Part shown: in pieces, positions 2,647 to 10,743 of the stretch
How the letters are laid out: each line of letters opens with the position of its first letter
How positions within the stretch are numbered: the stretch's first letter is position 1
Assembly (NCBI GenBank): GCA_039028615.1
Contig: JBCCHT010000038.1
Location: forward strand, 32,001 to 96,000
Length of the DNA stretch: 64,000 nucleotides
Reading direction: 5' to 3'
From: Myxococcota bacterium
GTDB taxonomy: Bacteria; Myxococcota_A; Polyangia; Nannocystales; Nannocystaceae
Notes under the pieces: generated by a model
Database searches by the model: none
What the model saw: the letters and a program-made list of their open reading frames with translations, nothing else
Told to the model about the DNA's origin: nothing
Position numbers and translations under genes: made by a program

Positions 2647-2997
2647 GTGGCCGAGGTCGATCCTCCACGGGATGGCGATCCTGCATCGCTGTCCCACATC
2701 GCACGGTGGTTCGCGTTTGCGGTCGCCCTGCTGACGGCGGGGAGCTGGATGTCCTGCGGGCTGATCCCGCGCAGCGAGAACGGGCCGAGCGTCTTTACCG
2801 GCATCACCGTGTTCGCCGTGGTGGCCTGGTTGACCACCTCGGTCTTGATCATCGTCGCGTCCCGGCGGCTCGACGGAGGGCCCGAGTCGTCGGGTGTCCA
2901 CCGACTCTCGGACGCGTCGCGAATGCTCCGCGTCAGCGGCGTGACCCTCCTGATTCTCGTCGTGCCCTGGCTCGCATGCCTGGCGTCGACCCGGTAG
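2647..2997 (+). CDS. Small 3-TM membrane protein, first gene of the radical SAM-Lgt operon
   Basis: Three hydrophobic stretches. TATCAT lies 7 nt upstream of the GTG, and the stop is 3 nt before the radical SAM ATG. Confidence 0.65.
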   Translation: MAEVDPPRDGDPASLSHIARWFAFAVALLTAGSWMSCGLIPRSENGPSVFTGITVFAVVAWLTTSVLIIVASRRLDGGPESSGVHRLSDASRMLRVSGVTLLILVVPWLACLASTR

Positions 2998-3000
2998 CCC

Positions 3001-4455
3001 ATGGAACGACGACAACGGCCCTATCTGTTCTACGGCGCCACGCGAGCGCTGTGCTCCAAGTGCCTGATGGTCTGCGACGCCAAGGAGCTGATCGAAGGCA
3101 ACCGGGTGTACCTGTGGAAGCGGTGCATGGAGCACGGGGTCGAGCGCGTGCTCATCTCCGACGACGCCGACTACTTCCGGCTGTGCCGAGAGACCTTCCT
3201 CAAGGAGCCCGAGCAGGTCGAGAAACACAACACGGGCGTGCTCTACGGCTGCCCCTACGACTGTGGCATCTGCCCCGATCACGAGCAGCACGGGTGCGTC
3301 TGCGTCCTCGAGGTCACCGACCACTGCAACCTGTCGTGCCCGACCTGCTTCGCCGACAGCGGGCCTCATCGACAGACCCACCGCTCGATGGAGCAGATCC
3401 GGCGCATGCTCGATCTGATCGTGGCCAACGAGCGCGAGCCGGACGTCGTGCAGGTCTCGGGCGGCGAGCCCACCGTGCACCCGCAGTTCTTCGAGATCCT
3501 CGACGAGTGTCGCCGACGTCCGATCCGGCACCTCATGGTCAACACCAACGGCCTCCGCATCGCCAACGAGGACGGCTTCGCCGAGCGCCTGGCCGAGTAT
3601 GCGCCGTCCTTCGAGCTGTACCTGCAGTTCGATGGCCTCAACGACTCCGCCACCCGCACGCTCCGCGGTGCCGACCTGTCGCGGATCAAGAAGCGGGCCT
3701 TGGCGCGGCTCAACGAGCTCAACCTGGCGACGACGCTGGTGGTCACCGTGCGCCGTGGCGTCAACGAAAACGACCTGGGGGAGATCCTTCGCTTCGCGGC
3801 GGAGCAGCGCTGCGTTCGCGGGGTCACCCTGCAGCCGGTCCACGATACCGGCCGCAACGAGGGCTTCGACGTCGACGACAACCGCATGACGCTGTCCGAG
3901 GTGCGGCGACGGGTGATCGAGGACTTCGACACCTTCACCGCCGAAGACGTCATCCCCGTGCCCTGCCATCCCGATTGCGTCGCCATGGCCTACGCGGTGC
4001 GAGGCAAGGGCGACGACTACCGTCAACTCTCGCCGCTCACGCGTTATGTGCCGCCCGACGTGCTCATCGACGCGGGGCGCAACACCATCATCTACGAGGG
4101 CGACGACGAGCTCATGACCGCGGTGGGCAAGCGGATCTTCTCCGCGTTCTCCACCGGCCACGGCCCCAAGGGGGCGAGCAAGGCGCTGGGCGAGCTGATG
4201 TGCTGCCTGCCCCAGGTCGACGCCCCCGATCTCGGCTACGATCGCGTCTTTCGCCTGATCATCATGCAGTTCCTCGATCGGCACACGATGGACCTGCGCT
4301 CGGTTCGAAAGAGCTGTGTCCACATCGCGGCGCCCGACGGCAAGCGGATGATCCCCTTCGATACCTACAACGTATTCTATCGCGATGCCCTCGAGCAGAC
4401 CGTGCTCGAGCCTTTGCGCGAGCGCGTGCGCCTCCCCGTGCAGGTCGGGTCTTGA
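3001..4455 (+). CDS. Radical SAM protein, Tes/MJ0619 (tetraether lipid synthase)-like family
   Basis: N-terminal CxxC..CxxH (LCSKC..RCMEHG), GCPYDCGICPDH, CNLSCPTC SAM motif, SGGEPTVHP, PCHPDC and C-terminal SCVHIAAPDGKRMIPFDTYN. Confidence 0.85.
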   Translation: MERRQRPYLFYGATRALCSKCLMVCDAKELIEGNRVYLWKRCMEHGVERVLISDDADYFRLCRETFLKEPEQVEKHNTGVLYGCPYDCGICPDHEQHGCVCVLEVTDHCNLSCPTCFADSGPHRQTHRSMEQIRRMLDLIVANEREPDVVQVSGGEPTVHPQFFEILDECRRRPIRHLMVNTNGLRIANEDGFAERLAEYAPSFELYLQFDGLNDSATRTLRGADLSRIKKRALARLNELNLATTLVVTVRRGVNENDLGEILRFAAEQRCVRGVTLQPVHDTGRNEGFDVDDNRMTLSEVRRRVIEDFDTFTAEDVIPVPCHPDCVAMAYAVRGKGDDYRQLSPLTRYVPPDVLIDAGRNTIIYEGDDELMTAVGKRIFSAFSTGHGPKGASKALGELMCCLPQVDAPDLGYDRVFRLIIMQFLDRHTMDLRSVRKSCVHIAAPDGKRMIPFDTYNVFYRDALEQTVLEPLRERVRLPVQVGS

Positions 4456-5261
4456 GCCCCGAGCTGGTCTACGGGGTGATGGTGGGGCTGGCGACCTGCG
4501 TCGCCTTTGCCATCCGTCGCTCCGAGGGCCGGCGCCTGGGCTACGAGAGCCAGCCTGGCTATCGCTGGGTGGGGCTTTGGTGTGTCGCGGGAGCCGTGCT
4601 CGGTGCCCGGCTCGGGATGTTCTTCTACACCGCGCCCCACGAAGGCGGAGAACTCCAGCGTGCCGTGTACACCCTGGGCTTCGACGGCAAGACGGTGCTC
4701 GGGGCTCTGACCGGCGGCTACGTCTTCGGCGAGATCGGCAAGAAGGTCGTGGGCGTGCGCTTTTCGACCGGCGACGCGCTCGCCTTGGCCTTACCCGTGG
4801 GGCAGGCCTTGGGGCGCCTTGGCTGTTTCTTCGCCGGGTGTTGCTACGGCGCCCCGACGGACGTGCCGTGGGCGATTGCTCAGCACGACGCCCTGCGTCA
4901 TCCCGTGCAGCTGTACGAAGCCGGGGCGTGCCTGCTGTTGGCGGGCCTGCTGTTCGTCATTCGCGATCGCCCTCGCCCGCCCGGCCACCTGTTTCGTTAC
5001 TACCTCATTGGCTACGCGACCATTCGCTTCTCGAGCGAGATGGTGCGCGGCGAGCCGCAGCTCATGCTCGGGCCTTTGACGTACGCGCAGCTGTACTGCC
5101 TGGTGATGGGGGTTGGTTTCGCCTGGACGCTCCGCGGATCAAGCTCCACAGCGGTCCGAACTGAATCGACAGCAGGTTCCCCAGGCGGCGATCCGGCAGG
5201 CCACACTCCACCTGCGCCCGACCCGGCAGATAAGTCCCGAACAGCTGATCCCACAGCATGA
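4452..5261 (+). CDS. Prolipoprotein diacylglyceryl transferase (Lgt)-family paralog
   Basis: GQALGRLGCFFAGCCYG, RHPVQLYE and YATIRFSSEMVRG, with multiple TMs. The TTG start overlaps the radical SAM TGA (TTGA). Confidence 0.85.
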   Translation: MSPELVYGVMVGLATCVAFAIRRSEGRRLGYESQPGYRWVGLWCVAGAVLGARLGMFFYTAPHEGGELQRAVYTLGFDGKTVLGALTGGYVFGEIGKKVVGVRFSTGDALALALPVGQALGRLGCFFAGCCYGAPTDVPWAIAQHDALRHPVQLYEAGACLLLAGLLFVIRDRPRPPGHLFRYYLIGYATIRFSSEMVRGEPQLMLGPLTYAQLYCLVMGVGFAWTLRGSSSTAVRTESTAGSPGGDPAGHTPPAPDPADKSRTADPTA

Positions 5262-5901
5262 GCGTGGAGCCGTAGTTGCGGTCGTGGAGGGCAGTGTCGC
5301 GGGCGTGGTGGACTCGGTGGTTGTTCGGCGTGTTGAACCATCGATCGAGCCAGCGGCTGGGGCTCGGCAGCTCGGTGTGGCACACCATCTGCCAGCCGTC
5401 GTTGATCTCGATCAGCATCAGCAGCAGCCAGGGGTCGAAGCCCAATAGCGCCAGTGGAGCGAAGAACAGGTAGCTCAGGGCCGCCTCGATCCAGTTGAGG
5501 CGAAACGTGGCCAGGAAGTTGAGCGACTCGCTGCTGTGGTGGGTGGAGTGCAGCGCCCAGCCCAGCCGGGTCTGGTGGAAGAGTCGGTGCTTCCAGTAGT
5601 AGATGAAGTCGATCAGCACATAGGCCGCCGCCGCACTTCCGATGCCGACCTCCCATCGCACGGGCGCGAAGCGGGCGAGCCACGCGAACAGCCCGAAGCG
5701 CAGGGCCACCGTCGCTCCGCGCTCGGCGAGGTTGACGGCAAAGATGACGCTGTCGTTGGCCGTCTGCGCGATCGATGGCGATCGGCCTCTGGCCCACGCC
5801 ATATAGGCCATCTCGGCCATGATCAGCCCGCCGACGATCGCCGCCAGCAGCTCGCGGTGGACCCACAGCGGGTCCAGCTGCAGCGCCGCGCCTACGAGCA
5901 C
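5062..5901 (-). CDS. Fatty acid hydroxylase / sterol desaturase family protein (alkylglycerol monooxygenase-like)
   Basis: His boxes YYWKHRLFH, WALHSTHHSS, CHT and NTPNNHRVHH, plus RNYG..WDQLFGTY. Confidence 0.9.
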   Translation of the reverse strand: MLVGAALQLDPLWVHRELLAAIVGGLIMAEMAYMAWARGRSPSIAQTANDSVIFAVNLAERGATVALRFGLFAWLARFAPVRWEVGIGSAAAAYVLIDFIYYWKHRLFHQTRLGWALHSTHHSSESLNFLATFRLNWIEAALSYLFFAPLALLGFDPWLLLMLIEINDGWQMVCHTELPSPSRWLDRWFNTPNNHRVHHARDTALHDRNYGSTLMLWDQLFGTYLPGRAQVECGLPDRRLGNLLSIQFGPLWSLIRGASRRNQPPSPGSTAARTSKARA

Positions 5902-6074
5902 AGCCCCGTCACGAAGTACAGCATCCCCACCACGATGCCCACGTTGATGATCACCGCGGCCGTCGTCGGCAGGCTCGTCCCTTGCTTGGCGAGCATGCGA
6001 TCCCCGGGCATCGGCGCGGGCACATTGCTCCTCGCCTTCGGCCGCTCGCCGTCATCCTGGTCGGTGTCGCCCAC
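5892..6074 (-). CDS. 60-aa peptide with a single C-terminal TM helix ending GLCS
   Basis: Polar N-terminus and hydrophobic AAVIINVGIVVGMLYFVTGLCS. The stop overlaps the desaturase start by 10 nt. Confidence 0.5.
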   Translation of the reverse strand: MGDTDQDDGERPKARSNVPAPMPGDRMLAKQGTSLPTTAAVIINVGIVVGMLYFVTGLCS

Positions 6075-6164: not shown

Positions 6165-8558
6165 TTACTTGCCCTTGCCCTTGCTCGTGCGCGGAGCGGG
6201 ACGGCGGGTCGACGTCGAGGTCTTCTTCTTGCCGGAGGGCTTGGCGGTGGGCTTCTTGCTAGAAGACGTCTTCTTCTTGGCCGAGGGCTTTTTGGCCGAA
6301 GGCCGGGCGGAGGACTTCTTCTTGCCACCGAGCTTCTTGCCGGCGCCGATCTTGCGACCCTTGCCTTTGCGGAAGCCGGGGCGACTGACTTTGGTCAGGG
6401 TGGTCCAGTCGCCGTTGTAGCGGCTGTGCTCGATGAACGAAGCGGGGCTGGGCGCGGGGCAGGTGCCGGGCTTGCACTGGGTGCGCAGGGGCGGCGGCTC
6501 GCAGCCGAGCTGATCGTCTTCGACGCGCTTGCGGCCGACGGCGGCGGACTTGCCCGCGCCCTGGTCGGCCTTGATGCGGTCCTCCATCTCGCGGGTCCGC
6601 TTGGCGCCGCGCACGGCCCAACGGGGCTTGGGCGGGACCTTGCACGCCTTGGTCTTCTTGCTCAGCACGCGGACGGTGTTGGCGATGGAGGCGACCTTGC
6701 CGGGCGCGACGTCGAGCTTGAACAAGGCGTGGCTCTTGGGGTCGACCTCTTGGACGCCGTGGATGAAGTGCTCCCAGCCGAGCGCGGGCATGCCCTCGTG
6801 CTCGACGTAGTAGCCGTAGGCGGAGAAGGGATCGAGGACGAGGGTCTGCGAGGCGCCGGGCAGGTTGACGCGGTGGCCGCTGTCGACCATGCCGTGCACT
6901 GCGTAAAAGGGCAGGTCCTCGGCCCTACGACCCTTGCGGCCCTTGCGGTTGACCATGGCGTCGAACTCGGCCTTGGTCATCTTGTAGTCGCCGCGGTTGA
7001 AGGCCTTGCGCATGGCCTTCTTCTGGCGCTTGTTGAACGACTTGCGGCCGGCGACCAGTGCTCCGCCCTTGGCACAGCCGTAGCGCTTGTTCTTGCTGCG
7101 GCGGCAGGCGGCCTTGCTGGGCATGTTCTCGGAGCGCACGAGCAGGTAGACCTCGTGCTTCTTCTTGCCCTTGGGGAGCTTGCGGCCCTGGAGGTTGATC
7201 TCGCTGGGACGCTGCACCACCGAGGCGCCCACCATGTCCATGTTGCGGTAGACGCTGTCGATGCCGAAGTCGATGGAGGAGTTGGAGCGCAGGCGAACGT
7301 GCAGGCACTGGTGCATGTTCTCGAGCGACAGCGACGAGTCGGCGGGGACCCACAGGTCGCTGACGAGGCTGCCCTGGCCGATCTGCCCCGCCCACTGCCC
7401 GGGCGCGACGGGGCCGCTGAGGGTGGCCGTCTCCACGAGGTTCCAGGTGGCGGTCTGCCAGGTGCTCCACTGCAGGCCCCAGTTGGCGACGCGGAACTCG
7501 GCCTGCACCTGACCGGCCTCGACGGTCTCGTCGGTGCGGTTGATGAACCCGGCCCGGAAGTGAGCGCCGTCCTCGTAGGGGATCTGGTTGGAGGGATACG
7601 AGTAGGGGATGTTGGTGTCCGGGATGGTCCCGTTGGTCATGTTGTAGTCGGTCCCGACGAGGGGCCGATACAAGTTCACGCCGCCGCAGCCGGCCGGGTC
7701 GGCGGTGTCGAGCAGGGGCCAAAGGTCGAGGTCGTTGCCGAGCGGCAGGTCCTCGGGCAGCGTGCTCGATGCGTTCGCGCTGGTGATGATGCAGTCGTCG
7801 GAGGTCTGCGAGCTGTTGTTGCACAGCAGCGGAAACTGCACCGCGGTGCCCGAGGTCGGGCCCTGCATGAACATCAGCGAGTTGCCGTAGATGTGGAGGT
7901 TGGGCCGGATGTCGCCGGAGCCCGACGTGACGGGGACCTCGAGCGCAAAGCGAAGGGTCCAGTCGTAGGTGGTGCTGGTCGCCGACTCGTTGACTCGCAC
8001 CTGCACCCACGGCTCGTGCACGGTGAACGTGGAGCTGGGGTTGGTGGTGGACAGAGGTGTCCAGTTGACCGAGGTGCCCCCACCGATCGCCGCCGCGTAG
8101 TTGATCGAGGAGGGGCCCAATGCGGAACCGTTGTCGTCGCAGTTGCTGACGGGGCTGCACCCGCGCAGGGGCTGGAACTGAATGAACAGCTCGGGGGCGT
8201 CGCCGGCGGTGTTCGACAGCGCGAAGACCACCACGTCCTGCGTGGAGTCGATGGAGGTATCGGCGTTCACCTCCATTTCAACGAAGACCCGCTGCGAGGC
8301 CTCGTCCCAGATCATGCGCGAGCGGGCGAGCTCGGGGACGGCGGAGTCTCCTTCCGTTCGAGAGGTGGCCTTGGTCCACCGCACCTCTCGCTGAGACTCG
8401 CTCAGCGAAGGGTTCCACCACTCGGGGTGGTGGGCGGTCGCTCCGGGCACCGCCTCGGCCTGCCGGAGGCAGAGATCCCCGGGATCGGAGGCTTGGGCGG
8501 TTTGGGAGAGGAGGGCGACGACGGCGGAGGCGAGCAGGGGTGACAGCAGACGCGACAT
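6165..8558 (-). CDS. Large secreted hypothetical protein with Lys/Ser-rich basic tail
   Basis: Signal peptide MSRLLSPLLASAVVALLSQTAQA, strong GC3 bias and a K-rich C-terminus. Confidence 0.75.
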   Translation of the reverse strand: MSRLLSPLLASAVVALLSQTAQASDPGDLCLRQAEAVPGATAHHPEWWNPSLSESQREVRWTKATSRTEGDSAVPELARSRMIWDEASQRVFVEMEVNADTSIDSTQDVVVFALSNTAGDAPELFIQFQPLRGCSPVSNCDDNGSALGPSSINYAAAIGGGTSVNWTPLSTTNPSSTFTVHEPWVQVRVNESATSTTYDWTLRFALEVPVTSGSGDIRPNLHIYGNSLMFMQGPTSGTAVQFPLLCNNSSQTSDDCIITSANASSTLPEDLPLGNDLDLWPLLDTADPAGCGGVNLYRPLVGTDYNMTNGTIPDTNIPYSYPSNQIPYEDGAHFRAGFINRTDETVEAGQVQAEFRVANWGLQWSTWQTATWNLVETATLSGPVAPGQWAGQIGQGSLVSDLWVPADSSLSLENMHQCLHVRLRSNSSIDFGIDSVYRNMDMVGASVVQRPSEINLQGRKLPKGKKKHEVYLLVRSENMPSKAACRRSKNKRYGCAKGGALVAGRKSFNKRQKKAMRKAFNRGDYKMTKAEFDAMVNRKGRKGRRAEDLPFYAVHGMVDSGHRVNLPGASQTLVLDPFSAYGYYVEHEGMPALGWEHFIHGVQEVDPKSHALFKLDVAPGKVASIANTVRVLSKKTKACKVPPKPRWAVRGAKRTREMEDRIKADQGAGKSAAVGRKRVEDDQLGCEPPPLRTQCKPGTCPAPSPASFIEHSRYNGDWTTLTKVSRPGFRKGKGRKIGAGKKLGGKKKSSARPSAKKPSAKKKTSSSKKPTAKPSGKKKTSTSTRRPAPRTSKGKGK

Positions 8559-8618
8559 CAGCACGATGAGGACGCTCCGAGTAGGGCGAATGTTCTGAAG
8601 TCTAGACAAAGCTCACGC

Positions 8619-9584
<966 letters not shown>

Positions 9585-9642
9585 GGCGGGGAGGGTAACG
9601 CCAAACGTCGGGGTGGGGTTGGGGCGTGGTACTACCGTGGCC

Positions 9643-10743
9643 ATGCCTCATACGCATGAGCCCAACAAGGCGGTCTGCCTCGTGGTCGGCGGGATGGCAT
9701 GGCTCGGTGTCGCCGTCCCGGCCCAGGCCGACTGCGCCGACGGGCGCCCGGTGACGATGGGGCATCGGGGCACGGGAACCTCCGGGGGCAATGCGTATCC
9801 CGAGAACACGATTCCTTCGGTGCTGCAGGCGGCCAAAGAAGGCGCGACCGCGGTGGAGATCGACGTGCAGCTGTCGGCCGACGGCGTTCCCGTGCTGATG
9901 CACGACGCCCACGTCGACGGCACGACGGACGGCATGGGCTGCGTGACGGAGCTGACGGTCGCCGAGCTGCAGATGCTCGATGCGGGAGCGGGGACGCCGA
10001 TGGCCGGAGCTGGTGTCACCGTGCCCACGCTGGCCGAGGTGTTGGCCGCGTCGCCGCTGGACGTGAACGTGGAGATCAAGGCGGGGGGCGAGGGCTGTCC
10101 CGTGTTCTCCGACGAAGAGGTCGCCAGTGCGATCGTCGAGGTGCTCGCCGACGACCCGATGACGCGGCATCAGGCGGTGAGCTCGTTCGAGCTGGGCATT
10201 CTCGAGGCGGTGCGCGACCTCGATCCCGATCTTTATGTCGGCATGCTAACGGTGGGCTCGCTGACGGCCCGCGTTGCGGTGAAGGCCGGCTTCAATGCGC
10301 TGAACATCATCGACGGCGGGGTGGACGAGACCTCGGTGGCGGAGACGCGGCGGGCGGGGCTCGAGGTCAACGCGTGGACCATCGACGACCCCGGGCGCAT
10401 GCACGAGCTGTTCGAGCTGGATGTCGACGCCATCATGACGGACGAGCCGGACGTGATGGAGATGGTTCGGGCCGAACGCTGCGACGTGGGTGGCGACAGC
10501 GGGAGCACGGGAGGCTCGACCGGTGGCGCCGACGAGACGGGGGCGCCCGGTGGCACGGCCTCCGACGGAGAGTCCTCGACGAGCGAGGCGGGCAGCAGCG
10601 GTGAAGCCTCGACGACCGGGGCCGCGATGAACGACGAGGGCACCGACACCGGCTGCGGCTGCCGAGCGCAGGGCTTTGGGGGATGGGGCTCGTTCGGGTG
10701 GGCGGCGTGGAGCGTGCTGCTCATCGGTCGCCGCCGACGTTGA
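9643..10743 (+). CDS. Glycerophosphodiester phosphodiesterase with MYXO-CTERM-like sorting tail
   Basis: GHRG, PENT, EIDVQLSADGVPVLMHD, NVEIK and AWTID. An S/T/G linker leads to GCGC, a TM segment and RRRR. Confidence 0.9.
   Translation: MPHTHEPNKAVCLVVGGMAWLGVAVPAQADCADGRPVTMGHRGTGTSGGNAYPENTIPSVLQAAKEGATAVEIDVQLSADGVPVLMHDAHVDGTTDGMGCVTELTVAELQMLDAGAGTPMAGAGVTVPTLAEVLAASPLDVNVEIKAGGEGCPVFSDEEVASAIVEVLADDPMTRHQAVSSFELGILEAVRDLDPDLYVGMLTVGSLTARVAVKAGFNALNIIDGGVDETSVAETRRAGLEVNAWTIDDPGRMHELFELDVDAIMTDEPDVMEMVRAERCDVGGDSGSTGGSTGGADETGAPGGTASDGESSTSEAGSSGEASTTGAAMNDEGTDTGCGCRAQGFGGWGSFGWAAWSVLLIGRRRR

Follow-up and report, generated by a model that had tools for sequence, protein, structure and literature searches.

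What would a bacterial relative of the archaeal lipid-coupling enzyme GDGT-MAS/Tes do next to a paralog of the lipoprotein enzyme Lgt? The question is raised by a 64,000-nucleotide (nt) stretch of DNA, hereafter the window, from a myxococcotal bacterium (assembly GCA_039028615.1, contig JBCCHT010000038.1, positions 32,001 to 96,000). Positions 2647-6074 of the window hold five packed genes. On the plus strand tm116, a radical S-adenosylmethionine (SAM) enzyme gene (rSAM) and an Lgt-like gene converge on a minus-strand pair that consists of the small gene pep60 and FA_hydroxylase. Judged from its sequence and from that of its relatives, this cassette probably makes an unusual lipid-modified small protein. 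In our estimate the chances are about even that it is a dedicated protein-lipidation and lipid-tailoring system, in which the Lgt paralog would lipidate the miniproteins of the cassette and the rSAM would remodel the lipid tails.

Relatives of the rSAM were collected in a scan of one genome per species. The scan yielded 256 relatives, of which the best 80 loci were kept and searched by tblastn with the window proteins. The 80 enzymes are 49-79% identical to the window rSAM and come from Myxococcota, Planctomycetota, Bacillus/Gottfriedia, Bacteroidota, Burkholderiales, Acidobacteriota, gammaproteobacteria and two DPANN archaeal genomes. An Lgt-like gene adjoins the rSAM gene in 52 of the 80 loci, distributed over Myxococcota, Bacillota, Bacteroidota, Burkholderiales, Acidobacteriota and DPANN archaea. 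The same tblastn searches found tm116 in none of the 80 loci and pep60 in one. In the protein P0123 (733 amino acids (aa)) an Lgt-like part is fused to an rSAM part, and its cluster has three members on three contigs. A search for longer homologues of the Lgt paralog returned seven longer Lgt-family proteins and no rSAM fusion. Long rSAM open reading frames (ORFs) of 540-732 aa in 10 loci were rejected as fusions, being upstream read-through with no Lgt match inside.

Co-occurrence was counted in a phylum sample of 301 genomes, with rSAM called at E <= 1e-100 and the Lgt type found in the window, termed K1, called at E <= 1e-35 with a K1 profile. The rSAM was present in 19 genomes and K1-type Lgt in 23. 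Both were found in 18 genomes, rSAM only in 1, K1 only in 5 and neither in 277 (Fisher p 1.6e-23, a value inflated by relatedness). Five genomes whose rSAM locus has no Lgt gene were searched, and all five carry a K1-type Lgt on another contig. These unlinked genes scored 195-220 bits, compared with at most 103 bits for the ordinary Lgt paralogs of the same genomes; two further matches at 180-183 bits look like second K1-like copies. A Cys-tailed ORF of the kind described below directly precedes four of the five unlinked K1 genes. Because the pairing persists at unlinked K1 genes, the Lgt/Cys-tail pair is the tightest link in the module. Adjacency, fusion and genome co-occurrence together mark the Lgt paralog and the Tes-family rSAM as conserved partners. 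The earlier note, made from the letters of the window alone, had named in advance the co-occurrence of homologues with Lgt and small Cys-bearing transmembrane (TM) genes as a check on its proposal. Such co-occurrence was found in the 52 adjacent loci, in 18 of the 19 rSAM genomes and in the excess of Cys tails near the module given below. The module is accessory and patchy, since the three other genomes of the window's own family that were sampled all lack the rSAM.

The whole module, including the Lgt-family gene, is also present in a complete Woesearchaeota chromosome (L048, 7394-9392) and in a Pacearchaeota metagenome-assembled genome (L061, 7251-10131), the latter with two Cys-tailed miniproteins. 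Acquisition of the DPANN module by transfer from bacteria is likely; according to a 2025 abstract, no archaeal Lgt homologue is known. In a Sandaracinaceae genome, locus L109 (G301:C47:51665-55336) has a second K1-like Lgt (183 bits) beside a Cys-tailed ORF. The same locus has a distant rSAM with 29% identity over 124 residues, and it may represent a second form of the cassette that has diverged.

In the window itself, the five-gene layout and coordinates given in the earlier note were borne out by the ORF positions (Table 1). tm116 and the rSAM gene are separated by a 3-nt spacer. The TGA of the rSAM gene sits within a TTGA, and the TTG start of the Lgt-like gene at 4452 overlaps the rSAM end. 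In the convergent pair, the pep60 stop falls 10 nt inside the start of FA_hydroxylase. Third codon positions have a G+C content (GC3) of 0.86 in tm116 and 0.93 in pep60, compared with 0.68 overall, and GC1 exceeds GC2 in both; the window as a whole has a G+C content of 67%. Both small ORFs have syntenic homologues in L023, the closest related locus, which has the identical five-gene order. The tm116 homologue is a 96-aa ORF with both Cys residues kept (E 7e-8), and the pep60 homologue has 55 aa (E 4e-12). From codon-position G+C and the L023 homologues, tm116 and pep60 look coding. The arrangement is not due to chance, as L023 repeats the five-gene order and 52 of the 80 related loci repeat the rSAM/Lgt pair. 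The source genome comprises 12.3 Mb in 94 contigs and is 96.7% complete, and the closest protein matches to the window are from Sandaracinaceae and other Myxococcota. Among sequencing runs, no RNA data set was listed as containing this DNA; the only run that contains it in full is a marine metagenome, perhaps the one from which the DNA came.

Table 1. Genes of the module in the window
Gene	Position	Strand	Features
tm116	2647..2997	+	GTG start 2647, TAG 2995-2997; 116 aa, 3 TM; no family match
Radical SAM (rSAM)	3001..4455	+	ATG 3001, TGA 4453-4455; 484 aa; Zn_ribbon_HMPTM + Radical_SAM (Pfam)
Lgt-like, K1 type	4452..5261	+	TTG start 4452; 269 aa, 7 TM; PF01790 128.6 bits
FA_hydroxylase	5062..5901	-	279 aa; membrane di-iron oxygenase, fatty-acid hydroxylase/desaturase superfamily; PF04116 105.6 bits
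pep60	5892..6074	-	60 aa, single TM, ends ...FVTGLCS; no family match

The 3' ends of the Lgt-like and FA_hydroxylase genes are convergent and overlap by 200 nt (5062-5261). In L009, L011, L012, L023, L024 and L025, the aligned coding parts of the same pair share about 80-190 nt. It is unusual for a 3'-3' coding overlap of such length to be conserved.

The Lgt paralog was compared with E. coli Lgt to assess which parts of the known enzyme it retains. Its PF01790 score stands against a gathering score of 24.9. It scored 71 bits with TIGR00544 (cut-off 118.9), and all seven NCBIfam Lgt models stayed below their cut-offs. The AlphaFold2 model (pLDDT 87.3) had a single PDB match at E <= 0.001, which was E. 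coli Lgt 5AZB (E 3.3e-6, TM-scores 0.53/0.51). E. coli residues R143, Y235 and R239 correspond to R122, Y188 and R192 of the paralog, and these are invariant, together with HP..LYE, in 33 K1 sequences. In the relevant passages of Mao et al. (PMC4728403), R143, Y235 and R239 are placed in the phosphatidylglycerol-binding pocket and the active site is described as facing the periplasm. The same passages report that Y235, R239, E243 and R246 tolerate no mutation and propose H103 of the HGGL motif as the lipobox-binding site. The H103 column holds Leu in the window paralog and Leu, Val, Ile, Thr or Ala in 38 K1 rows. Instead of the Lgt signature motif GRLGNFINGELWG with N146 and E151, the window paralog has GRLGCFFAGCCYG; the N146 column is invariant Cys in K1, and E151 is lost. 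A stretch between TM4 and TM5, longer in the best-scoring Lgt of the genome, is absent from the paralog, and its C-terminal tail is of low complexity. The Lgt paralog thus keeps the phosphatidylglycerol residues, and its changed H103 column fits an altered peptide specificity.

A GCxxxGCC signature was considered as a marker of the paralog and rejected, the best-scoring Lgt of the genome (contig C59) having the same signature with Cys at N146. The genome encodes four further PF01790 proteins (C59:20678-21436, C3:476477-477232, C37:77675-78427 and C2:504914-505663), and K1-type Lgt was always a spare copy. Loops 1, 3 and 5 of the paralog carry charges of +5, +3 and +3, which by the positive-inside rule would give the N-out/C-in topology of the E. 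coli enzyme. A cytoplasmic rSAM domain at the C terminus of the natural fusion fits, because the Lgt paralog is predicted to be C-in. Prediction of a complex between residues 1-235 of the paralog and tm116 gave 0.00 twice, run with no controls, and speaks neither for nor against binding.

The candidate substrates are the small membrane proteins. tm116 has a lipobox-like Cys after its first TM helix (WMSC37G) and a second Cys near its C terminus (PWLAC110LASTR); in the L023 homologue, the sequence around the first-helix Cys (..AAASC) has the look of a classical signal. In tm116, the positively charged loop that precedes the last helix suggests an outward-facing C terminus. Neither tm116 nor pep60 matched a Pfam or NCBIfam family. 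A search of 5.8 billion proteins returned nothing for tm116 beyond the L023 homologue, and in the protein atlas tm116 matched nothing but unnamed clusters of small membrane proteins, at 0.90-0.91, values that shuffled sequences also reach. By position and Cys placement, tm116 is a candidate substrate of the Lgt paralog and pep60 a second, Cys-tailed candidate.

The small membrane ORFs beside the module in other loci vary in length (54-125 aa), helix number and sequence. Their common trait is a positive loop followed by a last helix that ends in Cys after Gly-x or a small residue, with few residues beyond. Examples are ..LGIGACYG.., ..IIGFGCCA.., ..FYSICGT.. and ..LLxGLCG.., next to ..PWLACLASTR and ..FVTGLCS in the window. 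A fixed filter for such tails was applied to the DNA within 1.5 kb of the module (225.6 kb) and to the remaining 780.5 kb of the same loci. Cys-tailed TM ORFs numbered 47 near the module and 22 elsewhere, a 7.4-fold excess (binomial p 8e-16) in a comparison that is partly circular and not blind, as the filter was written after viewing the ORFs near the module. By the strict filter, 28 of the 53 Lgt-type loci and 6 of the 28 other loci had Cys-tailed ORFs. Two of these six (L014 and L044) are contigs ending where the Lgt gene would lie, and the other four are unlike the rest. The 25 remaining Lgt-type loci were scanned under relaxed criteria and assessed by eye, with no control, which added 12 loci with tails.

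Tail statistics were drawn from 55 ORFs in 44 loci, whose tails comprise 54 distinct sequences. Tandem copies were seen, with five in L044, three in L076 and two each in L061, L088, L023 and the window. Position -2 is Gly in 34 of the 54 tails, and 1-17 residues (median 9) follow the Cys. At position -1, Ala (17), Leu (9), Ile (9), Cys (5) and Gly (4) were found; the canonical lipobox as described in the abstract of PMC12462473 would not fit the large residues among them. Some carriers of the tail have about 180 aa with an N-terminal zinc ribbon, which argues for a cytoplasmic N terminus and an outside Cys. The claim that dedicated small Cys-TM proteins accompany the Lgt/rSAM pair is thus supported by the excess near the module and by the lipobox-like Cys at the outer helix end.

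For the rSAM, residues 14-478 align with Methanocaldococcus jannaschii GDGT-MAS (7TOL) at E 7.8e-63, and the Cys layout that had been likened to MJ0619/Tes matches residue by residue. The AlphaFold2 model, built from a 90-row alignment, had a pLDDT of 91.2, with loop 385-407 (below 50) as the sole low-confidence stretch. Foldseek matched the model to 7TOM at E 1.4e-39 with TM-scores of 0.79/0.77. The next best structure reached 0.37, and the next neighbours are the peptide maturases SkfB and SuiB (0.35-0.37). According to the model, the rSAM has the four-domain GDGT-MAS/Tes fold over its whole length. The rubredoxin-like motif CX2C..CX2H (C18, C21, C42, H45), the N-terminal cluster motif (C84/C88/C91/H94) and the SAM cluster motif CX3CX2C (C109/C113/C116) show little or no variation among 77 family sequences. 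All three motifs are described for GDGT-MAS in the passages of PMC9433317 that deal with them. Scans with Pfam and NCBIfam detected no recognition element of ribosomally synthesized and post-translationally modified peptides (RiPPs), no SPASM and no twitch domain.

The active-site columns of the rSAM differ from those of the archaeal enzyme. A legend in PMC9433317 gives Met439 and Tyr459 as fully conserved across 1000 archaeal GDGT-MAS homologues. The Met439 column is Met in the window rSAM (family M 45, V 24, I 3). The Tyr459 column is Ile in the window rSAM (family I 53, V 8, F 8, M 7, with Tyr not among these four commonest). The columns of Mj455 and Mj470, which we infer to be ligands of a C-terminal cluster, hold Ser/Thr/Ala and Asp/Glu in 76 of the 77 family rows, the 77th being a gap. 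Both are Cys in the single Tes-scoring representative, in all 14 rows of the TrsS group and in 44-45 of 53 other homologues. The remodelled C-terminal site of the family contains C99, C322, C439 and D453, the three Cys being invariant. A new loop at 401-402 reads Leu-(Leu/Met)-Cys-Cys-(Leu/Ile)-Pro and falls within the low-confidence stretch 385-407. This CC loop was present in 52 of 52 Lgt-context rSAMs, in 0 of 15 from methyltransferase contexts and in 11 of 17 with neither context. C99, C322, C439, D453 and the CC loop may together form a cluster site.

With the Tes model NF045702, the rSAM scored 253.8 bits against a cut-off of 450 (216.8 in the search of its own genome, also under the cut-off). 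The best-scoring named model was TrsS, NF045646, with 304.7 bits against a cut-off of 490. A HMMER scan of 1.84 billion representatives gave 601 proteins at E <= 1e-30. From the 150 best matches, the 93 of at least 400 aa were scanned against NCBIfam. Thirteen were above the TrsS cut-off (two more reached 489.9 and 488.2), one, P0217, was above the Tes cut-off, and the rest were above neither. A FastTree phylogeny of 152 rows and 487 columns was calculated from 77 of the 81 family genes (the rSAMs of L018, L054, L071 and L083 were missed by the gene caller) and 75 of the 93 representatives, 18 with only a partial-protein match having been dropped. The family, together with P0122, P0123, P0127, P0131, P0133 and P0141, lies behind a branch of support 100 and length 0.447, with P0121 inside the family clade. 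This branch is far from P0217 and from the TrsS group, which consists of the 13 representatives over the cut-off and the one at 489.9.

The Tes clade itself is not delimited in the tree, because P0217 was the only bona fide Tes included, and the verdict on membership therefore rests on profile scores and alignment columns. By these, the rSAM is a member of the HMPTM/Tes/TrsS superfamily outside the curated Tes and TrsS equivalogs. The earlier description of a Tes-like enzyme stands for the whole-length fold (TM-score 0.79) and the motifs, but not for the Tes equivalog (253.8 against 450 bits), Tyr459 or Mj455/Mj470. In the strict sense, placement inside the Tes clade fails, as the enzyme is below the Tes cut-off, scores higher with TrsS and has lost the Tes columns.

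In 18 loci the context is a methyltransferase, accompanied in 10 cases by a DUF547 protein. This methyltransferase most resembles the ArsM-like DVU_1556 family (129.5 bits against 155), and a DVU_1556-like methyltransferase family is fused to TrsS in P0269. The rSAMs of this context form one 17-tip clade (support 100) nested among Lgt-type lineages. Loci with this context (L017, L063-L067, L070-L074 and L079-L087) were without Lgt paralog, miniproteins and CC loop. These features are hints of a different substrate in this clade, with organometallic or metalloid chemistry as a possibility.

The remaining partner, a His-box hydroxylase or desaturase coupled to a TM peptide as the earlier note had it, is a real accessory of the module, mainly in Myxococcota. 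The PF04116 gathering score, with which the value in Table 1 compares, is 31, and the His boxes read HRLFH, HSTHH and HRVHH. The best named NCBIfam model was the ornithine lipid hydroxylase OlsE (NF052566), with 72.8 bits against a cut-off of 475. A homologue lies beside the module in 14 of the 80 loci (13 from Myxococcota, plus L080). Cys-tailed peptides just upstream of the oxygenase were found in L012, L023, L024, L025, L032 and L034, so that with the window 7 of 15 oxygenase-bearing loci have one. In the 301-genome census, FA_hydroxylase matches at E <= 1e-25 occurred in 114 genomes, the best being only 44% identical. By these matches, FA_hydroxylase paralogs are common and the subfamily of the module is rare.

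From these features a mechanism can be proposed. The Lgt paralog would reside in the inner membrane with a periplasmic active site, like E. coli Lgt. It would transfer diacylglyceryl from phosphatidylglycerol to the lipobox-like Cys at which the last in-to-out helix of tm116 or pep60 ends. The tails of these proteins would mimic a lipoprotein signal peptide, with a positive loop, hydrophobic helix, small residue and Cys, and would differ from it in the non-canonical -1 position and in the 1-17 residues after the Cys. The Tes-fold rSAM may dock on the cytoplasmic C terminus of the Lgt paralog, as in the natural fusion. There, a lipid tail would lie in a Tes-like hydrophobic tunnel, and a 5'-deoxyadenosyl radical would attack one of its unactivated carbons. 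The new C-C or C-S bond could be formed on the donor phospholipid before transfer, or could join an inner-leaflet tail to the anchor. In this reaction the remodelled C-terminal site and the CC loop may take over from the Tes cluster in storing the first radical. In Myxococcota only, the O2-dependent FA_hydroxylase would then hydroxylate or desaturate the resulting lipid.

A narrower version of this proposal, which we regard as rather unlikely, is a novel anchor with diacylglyceryl on a C-terminal Cys, whose acyl tails the rSAM would weld to each other or to an inner-leaflet lipid. In such a macrocyclic or membrane-spanning anchor, the CC loop or the remodelled cluster would provide the sulfur that stores the first radical.

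Several observations weigh against lipidation and tailoring of the miniproteins by this cassette. The main difficulty is topology. The Lgt site and the Cys would be periplasmic and the rSAM cytoplasmic, which leaves its access to the anchor unexplained; the rSAM would need to modify either the donor lipid ahead of its transfer or tails that extend to the membrane mid-plane. Because Tyr459 and the Mj455/Mj470 Cys are replaced, Tes-type C-C welding cannot be assumed for the rSAM, and Tes-type coupling may not occur. The nested methyltransferase clade without Lgt shows that the core chemistry of the rSAM does not need Lgt. On the side of the miniproteins, tm116 has a single detectable homologue, the near/far comparison is affected by the circularity mentioned above and the relaxed scan by its lack of a control. 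No Cys-tailed ORF was seen in 10 of the 53 Lgt-type loci (L009, L011, L029, L030, L033, L035, L036, L068, L075 and L078), and in three more (L037, L046 and L054) the Cys-tailed ORF is doubtful.

Some of these points would be explained if the cassette served free lipids, an alternative that we consider unlikely. The rSAM and the Lgt-like protein would then make a macrocyclic or membrane-spanning diester, with the Lgt-like protein binding or handing over phosphatidylglycerol and the small proteins acting as accessory or regulatory factors. Published hypotheses, in the passages of PMC8941075 on bacterial Tes homologues, tie these enzymes to membrane-spanning lipids. The fold of the rSAM is that of a lipid-tail enzyme, its conservation across phyla (49-79%) is far better than that of the small proteins, the nested clade lacks both Lgt and the small proteins, and no Cys tail was visible in 10 of the 53 Lgt-type loci. 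However, the sole conserved trait of the small proteins is a Cys in lipobox position, and their hypervariability and tandem arrangement are those of substrates rather than subunits. The K1/Cys-tail pair is moreover kept when unlinked from the rSAM. The module is also patchy (19 of 301 genomes) and present in aerobic Bacillus-like isolates, which to our knowledge are not known for membrane-spanning lipids.

The hypervariable, tandem, precursor-like ORFs with one conserved motif would suit a RiPP-like lipopeptide, which we judge quite improbable. The rSAM would modify the small protein, for instance by a thioether or C-C bond at or near its Cys, the paralog would lipidate it, and signal peptidase II would release a diacylglyceryl peptide of 2-18 residues as a signal or antibiotic. 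The short tails after the Cys (pep60 ends in Cys-Ser), the co-variation of the CC loop with peptide presence and the position of SkfB and SuiB as next structural neighbours (TM-scores 0.35-0.37) are in line with this. Against it, the predicted periplasmic Cys would be beyond the reach of a cytoplasmic rSAM, whose whole-length fold is that of the lipid enzyme and which has no RiPP recognition element, SPASM or twitch domain, and the loci have no conserved protease or exporter. A housekeeping Lgt paralog lying by chance beside an unrelated rSAM and non-coding small ORFs, as five PF01790 genes in the genome and the many spurious ORFs of high-GC DNA might suggest, is highly improbable, being contradicted by the fusion, the cross-phylum adjacency and genome co-occurrence, the gene-like GC3 of the two small ORFs and their syntenic homologues, and the gap between K1 genes (195-220 bits) and ordinary paralogs (at most 103 bits).

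Additional genes were noted outside the module. A predicted secreted protein of 814 aa (window 6165-8609, minus strand) has a long Lys/Ser/Pro-rich C-terminal tail and no Pfam or NCBIfam match. Next to it is an aldo/keto reductase gene (8619-9644, minus strand), of a kind also found a few kb from the module in L010, L038, L047 and L049 (Myxococcota and Bacteroidota). This proximity could be chance, the family being common. Elsewhere in the genome, at least a dozen separate radical SAM matches are clustered on contig C17 (G000, about 43-110 kb), which suggests a large gene cluster rich in radical SAM enzymes.

The proposed lipidation and tailoring system was further compared with known systems. 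The window rSAM shares with GDGT-MAS/Tes (MJ0619; 7TOL/7TOM; NF045702) the fold, the rubredoxin-like CxxC..CxxH, CPxDCGxCPxH and CX3CX2C motifs and the Met439 position. It differs in having Ile for Tyr459, in the lost Mj455/Mj470 Cys, in the added C99 and CC loop and in its score below the cut-off, and its type is bacterial, patchy and partnered with an Lgt paralog. The radical SAM (seleno)protein TrsS (NF045646) gives the best model score, also has C99 and shares a DVU_1556-like partner with the nested clade, but the rSAM stays below 490 bits, is distant in the tree and lacks the Mj455/Mj470 Cys that TrsS keeps. The Lgt paralog has in common with E. coli Lgt (5AZB/5AZC; PF01790; TIGR00544) the 7-TM fold, R143/Y235/R239, HP..LYE and the probable N-out/C-in orientation. 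It differs in its TIGR00544 score, the Leu/Val/Ile at H103, the lost E151, the missing TM4-TM5 stretch and its constant role as spare copy, and its partners carry C-terminal, not N-terminal, lipobox-like sites.

C-terminal sites of this type have one counterpart in the lipo-invert domain (NF058595, invert_tail), in which a positive loop separates two helices at the C terminus and the second helix ends in a lipobox Cys followed by a short tail. The existence of this 2026 model indicates that the idea of a C-terminal lipobox is known to NCBIfam curators; the name lipo-invert was not found in the literature searched. The models numbered beside it (NF058594 PacR and NF058596 CJJ1420_fam) are unrelated. 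Bona fide members (L122-L124) show the helix-loop-helix-lipobox design. Unlike the miniproteins, lipo-invert domains form the tails of proteins longer than 500 aa. Their lipobox is canonical (..SLSC, ..IASC), and the DNA up to 1.5 kb from L122-L124 contains neither an Lgt nor an rSAM gene. Five miniproteins from Myxococcota and Planctomycetota matched NF058595 weakly (10.7-19.9 bits, all below the cut-off of 37), and tm116 and pep60 gave no match to it at E <= 1. By description, the rSAM may also be likened to the Thermotoga radical SAM enzyme Mss, which PMC13459092 credits with tail-to-tail coupling of bacterial fatty acids; the passages on Mss in that article mention no Lgt or miniprotein partner.

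In the literature, Zeng et al. (PMC8941075) counted 456 bacterial Tes homologues and, in the passages concerned, proposed a role in branched tetraethers without a test. The corresponding part of a 2026 review (PMC13459092) lists bacterial Tes homologues as bioinformatically detected only. The statement in the earlier note that the function of these homologues is unresolved agrees with both sources. No published description of a link between Lgt and a Tes-like rSAM was found in a search that had subscription journals and bioRxiv supplements outside its scope.

The core trio recurs in many phyla, and no published function was found for it. Its partners name a likely donor, phosphatidylglycerol via Lgt, and a likely acceptor, the Cys of a miniprotein, and thereby provide a concrete hypothesis for the bacterial relatives of Tes. 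The module also places Lgt-family genes in DPANN archaeal genomes. If protein lipidation and lipid tailoring by this cassette hold true, it would represent a second, substrate-dedicated branch of bacterial protein lipidation, with Tes chemistry re-used outside archaeal membranes, and may be a source of small natural diacylglyceryl-Cys peptides or of anchors that are unusually rigid. Should the anchor with welded tails in addition prove correct, it would be the first function for the large bacterial branch of Tes relatives and the first case of a lipoprotein anchor tailored by radical chemistry.

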